Assembly (NCBI GenBank): GCA_040758595.1 | Contig: JBFLVJ010000003.1 | Location: forward strand, 20,721 to 84,720 | Direction: 5' to 3' | Source: Candidatus Micrarchaeota archaeon | GTDB taxonomy: Archaea > Micrarchaeota > Micrarchaeia > Anstonellales > Bilamarchaeaceae | DNA: 64,000 bases | Part shown: one piece after another, positions 2,890 through 64,000 of the stretch | How positions within the stretch are numbered: position 1 is the stretch's first letter | Layout: every line of letters begins with the position of its first letter | Made by a program: the position numbers and the translations under genes | Notes under the pieces: model-generated | The model's input: the letters and a program-made list of their open reading frames with translations, nothing else | Databases searched by the model: none | Told to the model about the DNA's origin: nothing

Positions 2890-3525
2890 CTAAAACCTTA
2901 GCAGGAATGTCGTGCGATAGAGGCGCTTGCCCTCGCTGGTCCCAACCAGCTTCTTGGTTATCAGCGCTTTGATACCCAAATCGCTAAGAAGCGCCACTAC
3001 CGCCTTCGAGCTGCCGACGAATATGTCGAGGCCGCCCTCCTTCTCTTCCTCTTTGGCGATGAACGTCTTCCTGGACAGCCTCTTCACGAACATCACGGCA
3101 TGGCCCCGGACCTTCAAGGGATCCCCCCTCAGCTGGACGATGCCCTCGAAATAGCCGCCGCTCATCCTCGAGCACTGCTGGCAGATGGTCCTCTTCATCT
3201 CCAGCGATATGGTCCGCTCTACCTCCAGCCCGCTCTCCTTCATGATGAATGCGGCGCTCTGAGTGTCAGGGTCGTAAGCGCCGCTCTCGAAGGCCCCTTT
3301 GCATTTGCTTATTATGAAATCGGATATCGCCTTCTTGCCGCCTTCGATCCACTCTCCCCTGATGCGCATCTTCCCGCAGCGGACGCACTCTTCGAACTCC
3401 ATCTTCCTGGGGCACTCCAGCTTGACCGGATAGCAGTCTATGCAGAAGGCCTCGATGAACCTGACGTTGTCGCTGCTTCGCCCGCATTTGGGGCAGATGA
3501 GGGATGACATATCGTTTAAAACCAT
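2890..3525 (-). CDS. NMD3-family protein (archaeal homolog of the 60S export adaptor), N-terminal multi-CxxC zinc-binding domain
   Basis: CPKCG ... CIDC ... C...CVRCG cysteine pairs sit at the N-terminus. They are followed by a basic OB-like region, the pattern typical of short archaeal NMD3. Confidence 0.45.
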   Translation of the reverse strand: MVLNDMSSLICPKCGRSSDNVRFIEAFCIDCYPVKLECPRKMEFEECVRCGKMRIRGEWIEGGKKAISDFIISKCKGAFESGAYDPDTQSAAFIMKESGLEVERTISLEMKRTICQQCSRMSGGYFEGIVQLRGDPLKVRGHAVMFVKRLSRKTFIAKEEEKEGGLDIFVGSSKAVVALLSDLGIKALITKKLVGTSEGKRLYRTTFLLRF

Positions 3526-7547: not shown

Positions 7548-9653
7548 ATGACCTCCCAAAAATCCGTCGTAGGCCTATTGTTATTGATTGGCATGCTCTC
7601 CGCAGCATTCAATCCAGCCGATTACCTGTATCCGTCTGAGACCAATGTCACCGTCTCCTATGTGAATTTCACGGATAGCGGGCACTCATATTCCATCGTG
7701 AAGCTCAACAACGTGGACACGTTCCTGCTAGAAGACCTGGAGGTGGTGACTGAGCAGTCGCAGATAGAGGACATCCTGTACACATACTACGTGAAGGAGC
7801 ACTATCCCTCCGATGACGAGCTGGACGAGCTCATCTCATTGATCAAAAAGTTCAACGACAGCAGGAACGATGGCTACGACTTCAAGAACAAGGAGGAGTA
7901 CGTCTGCAGGAACGACGTCCTGCTATCCAACGGGAAGATAATCATATCCGGCGAGAAGGTGATATGCCGTGATGAAGCATCCTGCGAGAAGAACGCGATG
8001 CTGCTCTTCTCGGTCTATGGGGAGGGCCTGGCCCTCGGCTCCATAGACGCCATCAGCGAGCCGCTCATGGATTTCACGCCCTCGAGCCTGAAGATGGACG
8101 AGTACCTGGGCAACTACATGGAGAAGCTCAGCGACCTCAACGAGGACAACCTCGCTGACACGCTCGAATACATAAGCGACACATCGGAAGAGCTGGTGCC
8201 GCTGTCAGAGAAGATAGAATCGACTATCTTCAGGACGCCACGCCTCAACGATACCGATGACAAGGAGGAATGCTATCTGGAATGCTGGGCCATCTGCCCA
8301 TCATTCGACCTCGACCAGGATGCTGCCGAAGACCTCCATGACCTGGCAGAGGACCTCACGCAGAAAGTCGGCCCGCTGGGCGGCTATGAGTCCGCCGCCT
8401 CGGACGTATTCAGCCGGACCGCGGAGCGCCTCGATTATGTCAAGGGCGAGGACCAGGCGACATACTACACCACGACATTCAGGCCGCTGAACATCAGCGG
8501 CACCAGGGCCATCGCAGACGCAGAGGACGCCGTGCGCCATGTGAAGAACAACTCGCTATCCGCTAAACTGGACCAGCTGAAATCGCTCCACGTTACAATC
8601 CCCGAGGACATAGGCAACAGGAACTTCACCACCATCGAGGCCGACATGTCGGAATATGGAGGCCTGGTGGCCGAGGTCCAGAGCGGGGCCGACTTCCTGC
8701 TCTCGATATACAACTCCACACTGGAGGAGAAGAACCGGGCCAATGGCATGATATTCGTGCTCCAGAGCAAGGACCTGGACCCGGTATCTGTCAAGTCGCT
8801 CCACCTGGTGGAGAACAAGACCGAGGACCTGGGCATCCAGTTCCATGACGGGCTCACATTGACACAGCTCGAAGAGCTCAAAGAGAAGTATGGTCTCGTG
8901 GCCGATGAGGCGGAAGAGCTGCTCATGACCGAGAGCGAGACTCCGGCGACGCGTGTCCTGCTCCTTTTCAGGGGCTTCGCCAGAAGGATCAACACGGGAA
9001 TCGCGGAAGTGGCGGACCAGACGGACGTCATAAGCAGGTCAGAGATCCCGGAGAACCCCATGAACCTGGGCCTCTTCTCCCTTGCTGTGTTCCTTTCCCT
9101 GTCATCCATGGCCCTCTTGGCATTCCTGTTCGTGCTGGGCAACGGCCGTTTCCCGGTGCCAAAGACGACCCATATGCTGGGCGCCGCGTTCGCGGTGGTC
9201 CTGCTGATGATACTTCTGTTCAGCCTCTTCATGTATGTGTTCCTCGGGAAGACATCGACCGATGCGAGCCTCCCTGAATTCATCAATGATCTCAACGGCA
9301 GGCACTCGACTTCGATAATGCTCGATCTCAGGGACGCTTCCCTCTCCGATGCCGATGCCATGCGCGCATGCGCTTCCGAGCTGGCATCCTCTTTCGAGGA
9401 CAAGAACAAGACCTGGACCATGTACACCATAACCCCGAGCACATGCACCCAGACAGCCAGCGACGGCTACCAGGGCGCGATGAGCGCAGACGACTGCATC
9501 GGGGAAGTGGACGCTTCGGATTCTTCGTTCGTTCTGGGTTATTCTCCGACCAACGAGGAGCCGCGTTTCTCTGTCATTTACACAAACAGGGCTGAGATAA
9601 AGGCGAACACGGATTATTATGAATCCTGCCCGCTTGTGGCCCTTTTCAGCTGA
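7548..9653 (+). CDS. Large acidic secreted/surface protein with a C-terminal TM region (hypothetical)
   Basis: N-terminal signal peptide, a ~480-aa acidic ectodomain with many N-x-S/T sequons, two TM helices near residues 500-560, and a Cys-containing C-terminal domain. Confidence 0.4.
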   Translation: MTSQKSVVGLLLLIGMLSAAFNPADYLYPSETNVTVSYVNFTDSGHSYSIVKLNNVDTFLLEDLEVVTEQSQIEDILYTYYVKEHYPSDDELDELISLIKKFNDSRNDGYDFKNKEEYVCRNDVLLSNGKIIISGEKVICRDEASCEKNAMLLFSVYGEGLALGSIDAISEPLMDFTPSSLKMDEYLGNYMEKLSDLNEDNLADTLEYISDTSEELVPLSEKIESTIFRTPRLNDTDDKEECYLECWAICPSFDLDQDAAEDLHDLAEDLTQKVGPLGGYESAASDVFSRTAERLDYVKGEDQATYYTTTFRPLNISGTRAIADAEDAVRHVKNNSLSAKLDQLKSLHVTIPEDIGNRNFTTIEADMSEYGGLVAEVQSGADFLLSIYNSTLEEKNRANGMIFVLQSKDLDPVSVKSLHLVENKTEDLGIQFHDGLTLTQLEELKEKYGLVADEAEELLMTESETPATRVLLLFRGFARRINTGIAEVADQTDVISRSEIPENPMNLGLFSLAVFLSLSSMALLAFLFVLGNGRFPVPKTTHMLGAAFAVVLLMILLFSLFMYVFLGKTSTDASLPEFINDLNGRHSTSIMLDLRDASLSDADAMRACASELASSFEDKNKTWTMYTITPSTCTQTASDGYQGAMSADDCIGEVDASDSSFVLGYSPTNEEPRFSVIYTNRAEIKANTDYYESCPLVALFS

Positions 9654-23484: not shown

Positions 23485-23505
23485 TAGCAGGCAACTAAAC
23501 TCAAG

Positions 23506-23701
23506 GGCTCATAGCTCAGCTTGGTAGAGCGTCGGACTTTTACTGTCTCCGGTCTCGGGTTTCCGACAGAACGATGTATCGTTCTGTGGACCAGAGAAAT
23601 GCCCGGCATTTCTCCCGGTCCGGTTTCGTTAACGGAACCGGGAACGGGAAACTGGAAACACAAGAGATCCGCAGGTCGAGGGTTCGAATCCCTCTGAGCC
23701 C
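23506..23701 (+). tRNA. tRNA-Lys (anticodon UUU) interrupted by a 122-nt intron at canonical position 37/38 (intron 23544-23665). No encoded CCA
   Basis: 5' exon GGGCTCATAGCTCAGCTTGGTAGAGCGTCGGACTTTTA and 3' exon ATCCGCAGGTCGAGGGTTCGAATCCCTCTGAGCCCG. The acceptor stem GGGCTCA/TGAGCCC, D-stem GCTC/GAGC and T-arm GAGGG-TTCGAAT-CCCTC are all perfect. The intron contains several perfect hairpins. Confidence 0.8.
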
Positions 23702-23798
23702 GTTTTTGCTTCCGGTCTCCAGTTCCCGGTTTCGAGTTCTGGGTTTCGTGTTCCGGCTCCCGTCGTGACGCAGATTTTAAACGCTTTCCAGAGAAGAG

Positions 23799-43318: not shown

Positions 43319-44035
43319 TTATTGGCGTGCTACTCTAAGGGCCCCCTTCGCGCTCCTGTAAATCACCTTCTTCGGTGGTTTTATCCTGCCTTCGAGCAGC
43401 ACCCCGTCCATCTGCTTGGATTTGGCGATACTATTCGCTATCGTCATATACGAAAACATGGCATCGCCCTTAAGCTCCCCCTTTTTTGCCAGATCTTTTT
43501 CTGCTTCATAGGCTGCCTTGAGCCGTCTTCGGGCTACGGAGAGGTCGACTTCAATGCCATCCTCGGCCATCGATCCAAGCACGCAGGCGATCGGGAACTG
43601 GATATCAGGGTAACGGAGAGCCTCCAATGAAGCATCCACAGCGAGCTCTCCGAGTTCCTTAAGTGCAGAAATCAAATATGCTTCTTGAAAGTCGCGATCG
43701 CTCTCCCGCAACAGCTGGATTATGCGCGGAATCAGGCTACTGTCGCCGGATTTTTTTATCATTTTCACAGCAATGGTGCGTACTTCCCATTCTGGATCTA
43801 TCAATGCCAGCACAAACTCAGGCAATATCCTGGGATCGGATAATTTTGACAACGCTATGGCCGAATTCGCCCTGACCCAAGGGTCGATATCCCGTAGATT
43901 TTTGATGAGCTGTTCCACTGCACGGGGACCTCCAATTTTTCCCAATCTGACGGCCGCGCGTACTTTTACAGCACGTTCGGTCTCGGATAATGGCATGGTG
44001 TTGAGCTGATTGATACAATAGTCTATTTCATCCAT
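43319..44035 (-). CDS. HEAT-repeat protein E with the conserved C-terminal tail motif
   Basis: HEAT units. The tail is MDGVLLEGRIKPPKKVIYRSAKGALRVARQ. Confidence 0.6.
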   Translation of the reverse strand: MDEIDYCINQLNTMPLSETERAVKVRAAVRLGKIGGPRAVEQLIKNLRDIDPWVRANSAIALSKLSDPRILPEFVLALIDPEWEVRTIAVKMIKKSGDSSLIPRIIQLLRESDRDFQEAYLISALKELGELAVDASLEALRYPDIQFPIACVLGSMAEDGIEVDLSVARRRLKAAYEAEKDLAKKGELKGDAMFSYMTIANSIAKSKQMDGVLLEGRIKPPKKVIYRSAKGALRVARQ

Positions 44036-59476: not shown

Positions 59477-60553
59477 TTGTCAGGAAATGATTGGTTTATG
59501 AATGGTGCAGCGACGGCTAAAAAACGCATAACTCCCAGGGAACTGAGATCGATAAGGGCACCTCCTGGTGTCCGCGACTTACAGCCAATCCTTGCGATGG
59601 CCCCGTTGCTCGAGGAGATGATGGGGGTGGGCGTCGGCCTGTCCATCAGGCAGGGGGCGGCAGGACAGAGCGATCAGGTCTACCTCTCCCCTAGATATCA
59701 GGAGCTCATGGGTGAGCCGACAATCCCTCTCCTGGAGGATACCATATCCATGCAGATCGGCGATTCGGTGCTGAACCTGAGGCTGCTGAGCCCCGATGAC
59801 CAGCCTGAGAAGCTTGATCGGCTGGCCAAGATGGCCATGGTCGGTGAAGTATCCGTCGGGCTGGCCCACGACATAAGGAATGTACTGACCATCATCATGG
59901 GCAACCTGGACCTCATCAGGAGAAGCGTGCCTGATGCAAAGGGCATATCCTATGGCAATCGGAATGCGGCTGATTTCATCGCAGACATGGATGATGCCAT
60001 CGCGATGGGCATGAGCATGTGCCGTAGGATAGAGGAGCTCGGGTCGACGAGGCGGGAACTGTCTACCGAGGATCTCTCGGCAATCGTGCAGTCGGTCGTC
60101 AACACGGTCAACAATCGCATAAAGAACGCGCCTGGGGGCGAGGGCGCCCTCAAGATAACCAATCTGGCCACAGATACTATCTTCGTAAGAGTGGTTTCGG
60201 CCGAAGTGCAGATGGCGATGCTCAACATACTGTTCAACGCTATCCGCTACTGCGGGACCCCTGACGGGAAGGGGCACATCATCATAGCTTCGGAGTCGTA
60301 TGCTTCACATTCGGTGCTCTCCATCTGGAACAACGGCCCGCCCATACCTCCGCAGGTTCAGGAGGGGCTGCTCAAGAGACCTCTCGCATCCGCGACCGTC
60401 CATGGCTATGGGCTCTACACCGCGGCATCGAACCTCGAGAGCTTCGGGGTCGAGCTGAGCTTCACGTCGGGCGAAGATGGCACCGAATTCCGGATGAGAT
60501 TCCCGAGGCCAGAGCGGCGGAAGCCAGAAGGGCCGGCTCCTGCTTCTGAATGA
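59477..60553 (+). CDS. Sensor histidine kinase (paralog of 48372-49286), no adjacent response regulator
   Basis: H-box HDIRNVLTIIMGNLDL, an N-box near NAIRYCG and a G-box YGLYTAA. The C-terminal layout is similar to the other kinase. Confidence 0.55.
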   Translation: MSGNDWFMNGAATAKKRITPRELRSIRAPPGVRDLQPILAMAPLLEEMMGVGVGLSIRQGAAGQSDQVYLSPRYQELMGEPTIPLLEDTISMQIGDSVLNLRLLSPDDQPEKLDRLAKMAMVGEVSVGLAHDIRNVLTIIMGNLDLIRRSVPDAKGISYGNRNAADFIADMDDAIAMGMSMCRRIEELGSTRRELSTEDLSAIVQSVVNTVNNRIKNAPGGEGALKITNLATDTIFVRVVSAEVQMAMLNILFNAIRYCGTPDGKGHIIIASESYASHSVLSIWNNGPPIPPQVQEGLLKRPLASATVHGYGLYTAASNLESFGVELSFTSGEDGTEFRMRFPRPERRKPEGPAPASE

Positions 60554-60681
60554 ACCCATGACACAAAACCCAGAACTCGAAACAAATGGAAAGTGGTGCT
60601 GTCGTGGCATCGCTGCGCTCGCTCCTTCCCTATCTTTCCTGAGCCCAAACCCAAGACTGGAAACTGGAGACGAATGAAAGA

Positions 60682-60905
60682 TGGGGCCGCCGAGATTTGA
60701 ACTCAGATCAAGGCCTTTTCCTGAAACCGATGGCTTTTACTGCCTCAGGGCTTTCCATGAAAGCTTTGCCCTTGGCTATGCAGAAGTCAAAGGTTTCACC
60801 CGAAGGCCCCAGTCTACCAGGGAAGCTGCGTTCCGGGTTTTCTGTTTTGGGTTCTGAAATCAAAACCCGAAACTCGAGACCCGAGACGCTTTAGCCCACG
60901 GCCCC
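60682..60905 (-). tRNA. Intron-containing tRNA on the minus strand (tentatively tRNA-Pro, anticodon CGG), probably with two introns
   Basis: On the minus strand, 5' GGGGCCG pairs perfectly with 3' CGGCCCC followed by discriminator A, 224 nt apart. The T-arm CTGAG-TTCAAAT-CTCGG is perfect. A candidate anticodon stem-loop GGGCC-TTCGGG|intron|A-GGCCT places an ~84-nt intron at 37/38. About 70 extra nt in the D-arm region imply a second intron that I could not resolve by eye. Confidence 0.5.
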
Positions 60906-61031
60906 TTGAAAATCGCAAAACTATCTCCACACAGTCTCCCCATGCTTCGATGAGAACCACTAGCACAGCAGTCCCCATTGTCTTGCGTTTCTTAGATATT
61001 GGATAACGATTCTCATTTTAAATGATGGCTC

Positions 61032-61826
61032 TCAGCCACTTGGCCTCAGAATTTCAGGGTCTACACTACAGACAATCGTTATCTCAGTGTTTTTCAAGAG
61101 ATCGTTCTCCCTAACAATTTGTCTAATCGCCCCCTTCACCCGTTTTTGCTGTTTACGATTGAGGGATGACCATTTGACAGGATATTCCTTTTTGCCATCA
61201 CCCGGGAAAATGATGTGATCCACAGAAAGAAGTCGGTCCATCCTGCTCGCATTTCTATGATACACATTCAAAATGGGCAGTAACATGTCCATGTTCCTCT
61301 TTAAGTAATTCTTTACTCTTGCCCCCAGTCCGCGTTTACCCATGGCTCGCTCGTAGCTTTCCCGCACCCTCCTGCTTATATGCGCTCTTTGTAGCCGGTG
61401 CAGCTCGTTCAAGGCTCTATGGATGTTGACATACGCTTTACTCATCAATAGCTCATAAGCTTCTCTCGTGGTTTTGTTTCCCTCCGGAGCAAAAACCTCC
61501 CTCTCGAGCCCATAGATAACCATGTTTTCCCTCTCGATGCTGTAGTCTCTCGAGTATCTATTTATCAGACTGAAGTTCTGGATTACGCGACTAGGTACGC
61601 CACTCTGGGCTCTCTTAGTTAGCTTGTACTCCTTCTCCTCCTTCCTGACGAACCCTTTCTCCTGTAGCTTCTTCAATTTCCTGTGGAGTTCAGATACCGA
61701 AATCCTATAACCATGAACCCCCTTTATATATCGGATAATCCCGGGCCAATCCTTCTCCCCGCTCATAAGTGCATCGAGAATCTGGGGCATATTCCTCGTT
61801 CTAAGAAGTCCTGCTATCTCTTCCAT
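61032..61826 (-). CDS. Hypothetical protein with N-terminal winged-helix-like region, in the low-GC island
   Basis: 264-aa ORF. The N-terminus (ILDALMSGEKDWPGIIRYIKGVHGYRISVSELHRKLKKLQEKGFVRKEE) looks like a wHTH (PadR/MarR-like). GC is ~43% against the ~60% background. Confidence 0.35.
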   Translation of the reverse strand: MEEIAGLLRTRNMPQILDALMSGEKDWPGIIRYIKGVHGYRISVSELHRKLKKLQEKGFVRKEEKEYKLTKRAQSGVPSRVIQNFSLINRYSRDYSIERENMVIYGLEREVFAPEGNKTTREAYELLMSKAYVNIHRALNELHRLQRAHISRRVRESYERAMGKRGLGARVKNYLKRNMDMLLPILNVYHRNASRMDRLLSVDHIIFPGDGKKEYPVKWSSLNRKQQKRVKGAIRQIVRENDLLKNTEITIVCSVDPEILRPSG

Positions 61827-61896
61827 CTTATATCTCCACTTCCATTTTGGTAGTATAATTTATGAAGAGAAAATCCTTAAAAGGTTATATACGGCT

Positions 61897-62346
61897 GTGG
61901 CCGGAGGTAATGTTATGGGGTGTGAAAAGGTTACGTCCATCTTGCCAAAAAATTTCTTGGCGGTCGCTTTCGCTCACTGTTATAAACTCACACACACATC
62001 ACATATCTCAACGGAGAGTGTTATGCGTTTATACGTGGTTTGCCGGAAGTGTAATACAAAGATTTACTTCAGGAGCGAAGCAAAGACGCGTCACGAGCTG
62101 CCCCATCATTTTGAGTTGAGCTGTAATGTCCTCCTCTGCAGGCACAAGGAAATCTACACTCCTGGGGATGTAATCGCAGAGCCGAATCTATCTGCCTCTT
62201 CTGGAGCACTTCTTGGCGGTCTCATAGGCTTGGTGGGCGGACCCGAGGGTGCCATCATCTGTGGGATTCTAGGGGCAGGGATAGGGGAAAAGATAGAACG
62301 GGATGAACACGAAGCTGTCAGACGCTTCAATGAGGTGCAAGCCTGA
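61897..62346 (+). CDS. Hypothetical protein with CxxC...C..C zinc-ribbon-like N-terminus and a Gly-zipper C-terminus (low-GC island)
   Basis: CRKCNTKIYF ... CNVLLCRH, then GALLGGLIGLVGGPEGAIICGILGAGIG. Confidence 0.3.
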   Translation: MAGGNVMGCEKVTSILPKNFLAVAFAHCYKLTHTSHISTESVMRLYVVCRKCNTKIYFRSEAKTRHELPHHFELSCNVLLCRHKEIYTPGDVIAEPNLSASSGALLGGLIGLVGGPEGAIICGILGAGIGEKIERDEHEAVRRFNEVQA

Positions 62347-62681
62347 TGGGACTTCCGGTTATAGACCCCCTCGTTTTTTTCCCATTCCTTCTCCCGTTAT
62401 TCTACTCTGTATGGCGACTTTATGGAGCTGGTTTTAGACTTACTGCACAGCTCGCGATAGATGTTCTTGCCCGGAGCATCGCCGTTGCCACTGCGATTTC
62501 GTACTCGTTTGTCATTATTTCAAGTAACCTCCCGGCGGAAATAAACCTGGATGTGTGGCTCACACCACTTCCTCTAACCATCGTGGGCAGTGTTCTCCTT
62601 GTGGCATATGTCTGCAGGGATTTGAAGAACACACTTGATGTTCACCTCAAAGAGCCAAAAGAGGTCAAAACACAGAAATGA
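62346..62681 (+). CDS. Small hypothetical membrane protein (low-GC island)
   Basis: Three hydrophobic helices. Start and stop overlap the upstream gene (ATGA at 62343-62349). Confidence 0.3.
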   Translation: MGLPVIDPLVFFPFLLPLFYSVWRLYGAGFRLTAQLAIDVLARSIAVATAISYSFVIISSNLPAEINLDVWLTPLPLTIVGSVLLVAYVCRDLKNTLDVHLKEPKEVKTQK

Positions 62682-62723
62682 ACTGGCGATGGCGGGCGCC
62701 ACCTAACTACGGGACCCGTCAGT

Positions 62724-64000
62724 TTAGCCCCTCGATCTCCAGAATGCCAAACCTACAACCATGGCAAATGCTGTGGCCAAAGCAACTCTAAATATAGCCT
62801 CAAAGCTCATTAGGTCTATTCGTATCGTTTTCAAGCCGGCAAACTCCTGCCCCGCCTCATCTGCCATTGATTTAGCTGAGATGTATCGTTGCTCTCGAAA
62901 TAGTTGGTCGGCCTCATCAAGATTTTCGGCAGCTTCTCTTTGTTTTAGCTCGTATTCTTGGGAGAGCAGGATATTAACCCACTGTTGTTCGTACCTGGCG
63001 CTTGCGTTTTGAAGGGCATCTTCCGCATTTTTCCGATGTGCCATGAGGTATACGTTCGTGTTCTTTGCATCCATTGCCGCCCATTGCCTTTTGTCCCGGA
63101 GATACTCTGTTCCGGCCTCGAGTGTGCTGAATATGTTCCCCCGTCTCCTTGAAAATCCGCTACAGTCACCCTCCTTTAGACCATCCTTGAAGAGGCTGAC
63201 TGTTGTCGTTATCATGTCATCCTTGCCCGCGGCATTCACCAATTCTTCATTTATGCTGGCCCAGACCAGAGACATGTTGCTAAAGGTCCTTCTGTCTTTG
63301 GTTACAGCAGTTCCGATTTCGGAACCTGCTGACGCATACTCATAGTATGCCGCTCCAGCACTATCACCGACAACACAGGCCGCTAATTCAGCGACCTCTA
63401 GAACTGGCTGTGCTTCGTTCAGGATATTTATGCCAGTTACATACCCTCGCACTGTCTTTGTAGCCTGCCGGCTCCAGCCATAGGGTTCAAGCTTTTCCAG
63501 CAATGGGGGCAAGACAGAACCATGTTCTTCAACCTGTCTGTTGGCCTCGTGGTTAAGGAAAGAATCCAAGGTATCGGTTATGCCCGAGAGCATGCCGCAG
63601 CTCTCGCTTGCAATCTTTTCTAGGTCATAGCACTCGTACATCAAGAGGTACTGGTCTGAAATACGGCTGACTTCTAAATCCGAAACAAGACCATGTCCCT
63701 CAAACAGGTCGGTTAGTAGGTTCTCATCCTCAATAATCCTGCAATCTGACGCGACAATAAGCCTATGATCCCCACCATCGTCAGTGGGCATTATGACACT
63801 GTATTTCTTCTCGTTGAAATAGAATTGCTCCGGTCTATATCCCCAATGATACTCCGTTGTGTCGTACTCCACGTACAAATCCTTGAGACTTGTGCAATCT
63901 GTCAAGAGGGTGGCTGCAGGCCGATCTGCACGTTCCTTGTCAGATCCCACTCCCAGACCTGCTATTACGAAGATGGCCAGTACAATGAGAACCCCTATCG
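62724..64000 (-). CDS. Hypothetical membrane-anchored protein, N-terminus outside the window (low-GC island)
   Basis: The frame stays open upstream of the annotated start through a hydrophobic helix (...IGVLIVLAIFVIAGLGVGSD) to the window edge. There is a C-terminal TM (FRVALATAFAMVVGLAFW). Confidence 0.35.
   Translation of the reverse strand, partial: IGVLIVLAIFVIAGLGVGSDKERADRPAATLLTDCTSLKDLYVEYDTTEYHWGYRPEQFYFNEKKYSVIMPTDDGGDHRLIVASDCRIIEDENLLTDLFEGHGLVSDLEVSRISDQYLLMYECYDLEKIASESCGMLSGITDTLDSFLNHEANRQVEEHGSVLPPLLEKLEPYGWSRQATKTVRGYVTGINILNEAQPVLEVAELAACVVGDSAGAAYYEYASAGSEIGTAVTKDRRTFSNMSLVWASINEELVNAAGKDDMITTTVSLFKDGLKEGDCSGFSRRRGNIFSTLEAGTEYLRDKRQWAAMDAKNTNVYLMAHRKNAEDALQNASARYEQQWVNILLSQEYELKQREAAENLDEADQLFREQRYISAKSMADEAGQEFAGLKTIRIDLMSFEAIFRVALATAFAMVVGLAFWRSRG

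Follow-up and report, generated by a model that had tools for sequence, protein, structure and literature searches.

Does a fall in GC content beside a transfer RNA (tRNA) gene mark an integrated mobile element, or foreign DNA of some other kind? The question arises at the end of a 64,000-nucleotide (nt) stretch of DNA from a Candidatus Micrarchaeota archaeon (contig JBFLVJ010000003.1, positions 20,721 to 84,720 of the forward strand; the whole stretch is called the window here), where an initial annotation placed a likely integrated element or genomic island at positions 60906-64000, next to an intron-containing tRNA gene. We find that this block was probably acquired from outside, and we hold with good confidence that it is a foreign, immobile islet. 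The full statement, in which this foreign immobile islet also came in by integration at the 5′ side of the tRNA gene, is the explanation we favour, tentatively. The composition of the block is foreign, its proteins of 264, 143 and 438 amino acids (aa) are orphans, it is absent from the closest relative found, and it has neither an integrase nor attachment-site (att) repeats.

The drop at the tRNA gene is real: GC content is 0.573 at positions 1-60681 and 0.477 at 60906-64000 (z = -7.0; all other 3,095-bp windows of the 71-kb extended sequence described below have at least 0.531). Its size was initially overstated, from ~60% to ~42-45%, as 0.442 is reached by one 500-bp window only and GC is 0.48-0.51 over 62000-64000. 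Codon usage, which had been proposed as a check, also came out as foreign. GC content at third codon positions (GC3) is 0.47-0.55 in the open reading frames (ORFs) of the islet vs 0.73 ± 0.08 in 63 background ORFs, with all five islet ORFs 2.2-3.2 standard deviations (SD) under the background mean. The use of synonymous codons is shifted too, for instance for Phe TTT (0.43 in the islet vs 0.08 in the background), Ile ATT (0.32 vs 0.06) and Cys TGT (0.53 vs 0.09).

The extension past position 64000 was taken from L001, a 12.4-kb contig of a second metagenome-assembled genome (MAG) assembly, annotated as "Candidatus Micrarchaeota archaeon", which encodes the exact 264-aa protein. Its reverse complement shows zero mismatches to the last 3,500 nt of the window (the stretch compared) and runs 7,080 bp past 64000. 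The islet reaches as far as window-equivalent position ~64432, ~430 bp past the window, where an ilvE-like gene for a class-IV aminotransferase has its stop codon; past this stop, GC is back to 0.56-0.58. The GC change points fall at the tRNA on one side and the ilvE stop on the other, and the whole islet measures ~3.5 kb (L001 6649-10175), with five ORFs. Beyond ilvE follow genes for a glutaredoxin, ABCE1, a HEAT-repeat protein, ferritin, a second glutaredoxin and a DEAD-box helicase, with host-like GC throughout. The integrase that had been suspected beyond 64000 was not there, and no other mobility gene was found in the 7 kb past the window. The features of the islet within the window are:

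60906..64000, no strand: in-window part of the low-GC islet, delimited by GC, codon usage and absence in the relative L082
61032..61826, minus strand: 264-aa orphan protein with a putative N-terminal winged-helix-like DNA-binding domain (sub-threshold matches)
61915..62346, plus strand: 143-aa orphan protein (149 aa if the GTG at 61897 is the start)
62346..62681, plus strand: small membrane protein of 111 aa, three hydrophobic segments
62724..64000, minus strand: 438-aa protein with transmembrane (TM) segments and a coiled coil; start codon at window-equivalent 64040, 40 nt off-window

The four hypothetical ORFs listed at the outset thus exist (264, 143/149, 111 and 438 aa, the last one running off-window), and the whole islet holds a fifth of 52 aa. 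The first descriptions of their products hold weakly, since the winged helix-turn-helix (wHTH) and glycine-zipper resemblances are sub-threshold; a CxxC...Cx5C motif, three hydrophobic segments and two TM segments were seen. In the 264-aa protein, residues 40-74 gave wHTH matches in Pfam, PADLOC and NCBIfam, all below threshold (families MCM_C, HTH_45, PadR, Csa3-wH, Sso10a and Lrs14), and a PDB sequence search found no match. Its gene is the closest to the tRNA 5′ end (126 nt from the stop codon), shares the strand of the tRNA and is divergent from the next two genes. The 143-aa protein combines a zinc-ribbon-like N-terminus, which holds the cysteine motif, with a hydrophobic C-terminus in which the glycine zipper falls. 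Because the start codon of the 111-aa gene overlaps the stop codon of the 143-aa gene (ATGA), their arrangement suggests an operon; the 111-aa protein has no family match in Pfam, PHROGs, NCBIfam or PADLOC. The TM segments of the 438-aa protein (residues 4-36 and 410-434) enclose a mostly helical, coiled-coil-rich ectodomain.

Among 5.8 billion proteins, the 264-, 143- and 438-aa proteins matched only themselves (in a word-indexed search for the 438-aa protein). A full HMMER search of 1.84 billion representatives with the 438-aa protein recovered five remote relatives (E 1.7e-26 to 1e-3, best identity 38%). DNA was readable for four of the five and consists of short metagenome contigs with a GC of 0.34-0.40. 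One of these relatives neighbours a DUF87/HAS-barrel ATPase and another a ubiquitin-like/E2/JAB-E1 cluster: on the metagenome contig L164 (1447-4365, GC 0.38), a 438-aa homologue (E = 1e-3) stands directly upstream of a Multi_ubiq/Prok-E2_E/JAB-E1 fusion cluster. Ubiquitin-like conjugation systems of this type are linked to anti-phage defence. Near the remote 438-aa homologues, 264-aa-like and 438-aa-like genes do not co-occur. Scans of IMG/VR with the 264- and 438-aa proteins gave no relatives, and the whole islet had no blastn match among INPHARED phages and PLSDB plasmids. PADLOC detected no defence system in the islet, only sub-threshold winged-helix resemblance to Csa3/CARF-associated wH domains. 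Hallmarks of defence, toxins or viruses were likewise not detected among the islet genes. Single-sequence AlphaFold2 models reached a mean predicted local distance difference test (pLDDT) of 39 for the 264-aa and 38 for the 438-aa protein, too poor for fold searches. On the face of their sequences the genes look like a cassette of a regulator and envelope proteins, and their simplest reading, weakly held, may be a locally regulated envelope or membrane module.

The neighbouring tRNA gene had been placed exactly. Its sequence identifies it as a real tRNA-Pro(CGG) gene with two introns:

60682..60905, minus strand: tRNA-Pro(CGG) with two introns, 5′ end at 60905 and 3′ end at 60682
60891-60905, 60799-60821 and 60682-60716, minus strand: exons, by alignment to intronless orthologues
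60822-60890, minus strand: D-loop intron (15/16) of 69 nt, by alignment to orthologues
60717-60798, minus strand: anticodon-loop intron (37/38), 82 nt by the alignment parse and 85 nt by ARAGORN

Neither ARAGORN (with or without intron mode) nor Rfam at the gathering threshold called a tRNA at 60682-60905, where Rfam had a partial match of 14.4 bits (60682-60746, minus strand). The minus strand holds a perfect acceptor stem (GGGGCCG/CGGCCCC+A), the T arm CTGAG-TTCAAAT-CTCGG and an anticodon arm with CGG, and after in silico deletion of ~60 nt in the D region ARAGORN calls a tRNA-Pro(CGG) with an 85-nt anticodon-loop intron. The exons align base for base with the intronless syntenic tRNA-Pro(CGG) of three relatives (L004, L007 and L018) and also match 13 further genes. 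The pre-tRNA folds at -96 kcal/mol (z = -4.4 vs shuffles); in the minimum free energy fold both introns form long hairpins with internal loops at the junctions, in which a strict 3-4-3 bulge-helix-bulge was not resolved. A broad-specificity epsilon2 splicing endonuclease is described for Ca. Micrarchaeum (PMC3488258). With the tRNA gene in minus orientation, the end that meets the low-GC block is the 5′ one. The first interpretation had invoked tRNA 3′ ends as classical integration sites, an argument that does not apply here as stated: one islet border sits directly at the tRNA gene, on the 5′ and not on the 3′ side.

For comparison, related loci were fetched with ilvE as anchor (80 in genomes that represent species and 80 in metagenomes). 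The gene order common to Micrarchaeota is DEAD - Grx - ABCE1 - Grx - ilvE - gap - tRNA-Pro(CGG) - 69-aa gene - (229-aa gene) - lipA. The tRNA-Pro(CGG) was found in 17 loci, always on the ilvE strand and with its 5′ end toward the gap, and among these 17 the gap measures anything between 32 bp and 8.2 kb, its contents being unrelated. When 117 gap proteins were compared all against all, no islet ORF had a relative and few families were common to any loci; no islet homologues were present among about 30 related loci. The gap between ilvE and tRNA-Pro is a variable accessory-gene slot across Micrarchaeota. In relatives it holds an OpuA-type transporter, a polyprenyl synthase with UbiA, an LMF1-like protein or a carbonic anhydrase, and low-GC inserts were found in the slot in L007 and L011 as well.

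A comparison with relatives lacking the insert had also been called for, and the closest relative found, L082 (ilvE identity 85% for protein and 78.5% for nucleotides), offers an empty site, in which the ilvE stop is followed by a 32-bp spacer, a tRNA-Pro(CGG) with a single 35-nt intron and then a histidine kinase homologue. DNA homology between L082 and L001 ends 2 nt past the ilvE stop and restarts inside the tRNA; between the genome of the window and this nearest relative, the islet is thus an indel. The empty site was seen only in L082, a different species-level relative, and an exact look-up of the histidine kinase protein, made for strain variants without the islet, returned the same two contigs only. 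Measured against the usual description of a genomic island, the block has atypical GC and codon usage and a patchy presence among relatives; at 3.5 kb it is below the size of >10 kb, and mobility genes and flanking repeats are absent. It qualifies only as a "genomic islet".

One of the other low-GC inserts bears on how the slot is entered. L007 ("Ca. ainarchaeum sp." STA_33) carries an unrelated 6-kb island upstream of its tRNA-Pro(CGG), with a GC of 0.45 vs 0.605. Its right border is the intact tRNA; its left border holds an exact 15-nt copy of tRNA positions 1-15 (GGGGTCATGGGCTAA), a second tRNA-like copy that is truncated and a repeat of the tRNA upstream flank that matches at 18/23 positions (repeat coordinates 3078-3184 and 9070-9121). 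This looks like the signature of an insertion into the 5′ part of tRNA-Pro. The islet of the window occupies the same slot with a similar GC depression, likewise has no recognisable integrase, and likewise consists of small orphan genes that include a Zn-finger and membrane or secreted proteins. In contrast to L007, which keeps exact tRNA 5′-end repeats and a duplicated upstream flank, the window islet is without this tRNA-repeat signature at a convincing level. The two have no genes in common. A 34-nt repeat (ATCNCCTCCCGATAAGTCTAAAATCCTTGGGAAC) distinguishes L007 further; its five copies (5364, 6692, 7279, 8181 and 8529) are intergenic, mostly just upstream of gene starts, and may act as a common promoter or mark cassette boundaries.

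In the account that we favour, DNA from a low-GC donor would have integrated within the 5′ portion of tRNA-Pro, in the manner that L007 points to; later loss of the integrase and loss or decay of the displaced tRNA fragment would have left "captured" genes behind. The islet would possibly be the decayed remnant of a 5′-tRNA-targeting element. This route is favoured because of the evidence from L007, the exact abutment on the promoter side of the tRNA, the cargo of an orphan regulator and membrane proteins, and a precedent in Caldiarchaeum subterraneum. In that archaeon, a 5′ fragment of tRNA-Thr(GGU) lies 1.8 kb upstream of a two-intron tRNA gene, and Sugahara et al. (2012, PMC3293823) proposed that a mobile element integrates at the tRNA 5′ terminus and delivers an extra intron; either tRNA terminus can be an attachment site (PMC3293823). 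As in the window, the archaeal tRNA gene has two introns and the insert directly at its 5′ side, and a close variant lacks both the insert and one of the introns. The intron-delivery model is in line with the window genome, which has the island and the D-loop intron, and L082, which has neither. Caldiarchaeum differs in the clear tRNA 5′ fragment that flanks its 1.8-kb insert and in a putative DNA recombinase beside the tRNA, neither of which was found in the window, and its extra intron is at position 24/25 vs 15/16 in the window tRNA.

The islet also resembles pNOB8- and SSV-type elements and cases of "gene capture" (PMC8371274, PMC3293823) as tRNA-adjacent foreign DNA with atypical composition and orphan genes, and integrated elements can lose mobility and persist as captured genes (PMC8371274; PMC3293823). 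Unlike these types, it is without direct att repeats and without a tyrosine recombinase in either whole or partitioned form, and at 3.5 kb it is far smaller. Genomic islets, flexible genomic islands and "dark matter islands", as described in PMC4158269 and PMC2718499, share with it lineage-specific clusters of narrowly distributed, fast-evolving or orphan genes, a conserved variable position by a tRNA and atypical composition; these categories are descriptive rather than mechanisms, and the window islet stands at the very small end of their sizes. Its GC of 0.48, between 0.57 in the host and 0.34-0.40 in the putative donors, would fit partial amelioration, which, with these donors, would imply an age sufficient for att repeats to decay.

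Several observations weigh against an element that entered through the tRNA. No recombinase of a recognised family was found among the five ORFs and an alternative 83-aa ORF (Pfam, PHROGs, NCBIfam and PADLOC, E <= 1), and the L007 island, too, is without a recognisable integrase; its repeats are what points to a mechanism there. A Smith-Waterman comparison with the 392-bp ilvE-side border gave as best a 29/44 colinear match with an empirical p of 0.035 (relative to segments drawn at random from that genome); p rises to 0.11-0.15 when the queries are longer. Most relatives have ordinary cellular genes of host-like GC in the slot, so that site-specific integration is not required to account for its variability. 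The direction of the event, gain here vs loss in L082, follows from composition and not from phylogeny. The D-loop intron, finally, occurs also in L012, L014 and L086 in front of which there is no GC anomaly, and its link with the island may be coincidental.

The search for att repeats, which had likewise been suggested, covered the extended sequence and used the tRNA 5′ exon with its upstream flank, the 3′ part with the trailer and the spliced tRNA as queries (blastn-short and Smith-Waterman). No meaningful second tRNA copy was present anywhere in the 71 kb and no significant tRNA duplicate at the far border, while the same test applied to L007 as positive control gave a Smith-Waterman score of 46 vs a background maximum of 32 (p < 1/4000). 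The 29/44 match contains the exact 8-mer CAAGGGGC, found near both islet borders (L001 6774 and 10173); this 8-nt direct repeat is the sole exact border repeat and the sole candidate for a target-site duplication. A 17/20 direct repeat overlapping the tRNA 5′ end (L001 7924 vs 10167) was rejected as att, as it lies inside the 438-aa ORF and its 11-nt exact core is at chance level (E = 0.48). The islet has no terminal inverted repeats and no attC-like repeat family between its genes, and the Pfam and NCBIfam scans revealed no transposase or Cas1 in its proteins.

Entry independent of an integrase is nearly as likely as the favoured route, and we regard it as a serious possibility. Donor DNA could have been joined by illegitimate or microhomology-mediated recombination, or Micrarchaeota-like donor DNA by homologous recombination in the ilvE and tRNA flanks, with no mobile element ever involved. 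The absence of an integrase and of a significant att repeat agrees with such an origin, as does the microhomology length of CAAGGGGC. Turnover of the slot is not tied to mobile elements, given that most relatives hold host-GC accessory genes, and the conserved flanks are usable as recombination anchors; flexible genomic islands are exchanged by recombination in conserved flanks. Against this speak L007, which shows tRNA-5′-directed insertion at exactly this site, and the content of an orphan regulator and small membrane proteins, which is typical of mobile-element cargo. Moreover, no donor genome with the cassette was found with the three orphan proteins among the 5.8 billion searched, and the 3′ end of ilvE has no donor-like GC patch.

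It is improbable that the genes are native, fast-evolving and lineage-specific, that their low GC stems from weak expression or relaxed selection and that they were deleted in L082. The unproven direction of the indel leaves room for this, many membrane proteins in DPANN genomes evolve rapidly, and the archaeal "dark matter island" concept (PMC4158269) covers such clusters. It is countered by the low GC3 of all five ORFs, by composition change points that coincide with the ilvE stop and the tRNA, by the absence of homologues from about 30 related loci and by the low GC of the readable contigs with remote 438-aa relatives.

Less probable again is that the slot serves as the attachment site of a Micrarchaeota element family that targets the tRNA 5′ end and promoter with a recombinase unrelated to known families. 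Such an element would also have delivered the D-loop intron, present here and absent in the island-free relative. Consistent with it, the 264-aa winged-helix gene lies next to the reconstituted tRNA on the same strand, the position of a pNOB8-type integrase, and in L007 the tRNA 5′-end repeats are intact around a 6-kb island that has no recognisable integrase.

A virus, plasmid or integrative element that is intact, or largely so, with an integrase just past the window and attL/attR repeats of the tRNA 3′ end, is very unlikely. Low GC, tRNA adjacency and hypothetical genes had spoken for it. The block stops at ilvE, 430 bp beyond position 64000, the 7 kb that follow the window encode no integrase, the block lies on the tRNA 5′ side and there is no att duplication; barring a misassembled contig, extension and att search refute this reading. 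The initial annotation had regarded the lack of att duplication and mobility genes, together with the same low-GC genes at this locus in all relatives, as speaking against its proposal. The first two are indeed lacking, yet the relatives do not have these genes. The claim of an intact integrated element fails, and that of a horizontally acquired islet, absent in the closest relative, stands. The weakest candidate is a chimera of assembly or binning in which a low-GC piece from another organism was joined by mistake, for which the MAG origin and the abrupt GC change could be cited and which is hardly credible because the islet genes occur in two separately deposited MAG assemblies (locus-tag prefixes AB1295_ and ACOY58_) and the second contig, L001, runs across both junctions and differs from the window at none of the 3,500 nt compared, each junction being a short intergenic spacer beside an intact gene.

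The 3′ side of the tRNA has an insertion of its own:

59498..60553, plus strand: histidine kinase gene on the tRNA 3′ side, outside the islet, with host-like GC

Only the window genome and L082 have this gene between tRNA-Pro and the 69-aa gene; in other Micrarchaeota loci with both features, the 69-aa gene is within about 25-110 nt of the tRNA. It is a second, older lineage-specific insertion.

The introns of the tRNA-Pro gene form a set of observations in themselves. The D-loop intron (60822-60890) is homologous almost end to end with 60612-60673 just downstream of the tRNA (Smith-Waterman score 34, p = 0.0005), and the motif GTYTCSAGTTnnnGGGTTTTG occurs in three copies within 350 nt (D-loop intron, 60612-60673 and 60564-60583) and nowhere else in the window. 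L014 and L086 carry homologous D-loop introns. The orthologous tRNA-Pro(CGG) of L086 (13358-13637) apparently has three introns (D-loop, 37/38 and T-loop), with the same sequence motif in the T-loop intron as in the D-loop intron. The 37/38 intron is homologous across Micrarchaeota (L002, L009, L096, L014 and others) and 0-127 nt long. Its long versions (L002 and L009) contain the box C/D-like motifs CTGATGG, CCTGAG and TTGATGAAAC, and these motifs suggest that the intron may encode a guide RNA, degenerate in the copy of the window.

Downstream of the gene, the tRNA 3′ end and trailer are partly duplicated at a distance of ~70 nt (window 60561-60696; L082 1823-1930; p < 1/2000 in L001). We at first read this duplication (~60561-60696) as an att scar on the histidine kinase side. 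At least five other lineages (including L005, L007, L086 and L012) carry a "GGGG-hairpin-(N)CCCCA-T-rich" element that mimics the tRNA's own 3′ end, at a distance of 55-100 nt on the downstream side of tRNA-Pro(CGG). The element would be the scar of an old att site or else a conserved minihelix-like RNA, and its recurrence makes a conserved structured element at least as likely as a scar.

Elsewhere in the window, the sole tRNA called by Rfam (23505-23702, plus strand, 52 bits) has an anticodon-loop intron of ~122-125 nt and is a tRNA-Leu by the intron mode of ARAGORN; in this genome, tRNA introns seem to be long as a rule. A 238-aa ORF at 43319-44035 (minus strand, GC3 0.54), in a mildly GC-depressed stretch (43-46 kb, GC ~0.54), may be another small foreign gene.

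Taken alone, the islet is fairly ordinary, one more small foreign islet beside a tRNA gene, and the side findings at the tRNA-Pro locus (the 5′-end repeats of L007 and the homologies of intron and trailer) are more unusual. Its case illustrates that a GC drop beside a tRNA gene is not by itself the sign of an integrated element. A limited literature search found no description of mobile elements in Micrarchaeota, and the ilvE-tRNA-Pro gap is now documented as a conserved variable slot across this DPANN lineage. The islet encodes unstudied orphans, namely a regulator and several membrane proteins. The pair formed by the window genome, with island and D-loop intron, and L082, with an empty site and no D-loop intron, can be used to test whether mobile elements deliver introns or introns protect from integration. 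To our knowledge, few cases of integration at the 5′ side of a tRNA gene exist beyond that of Sugahara et al. Together, the islet and the island of L007 suggest that foreign DNA can enter archaeal genomes at the 5′ side of a tRNA gene.

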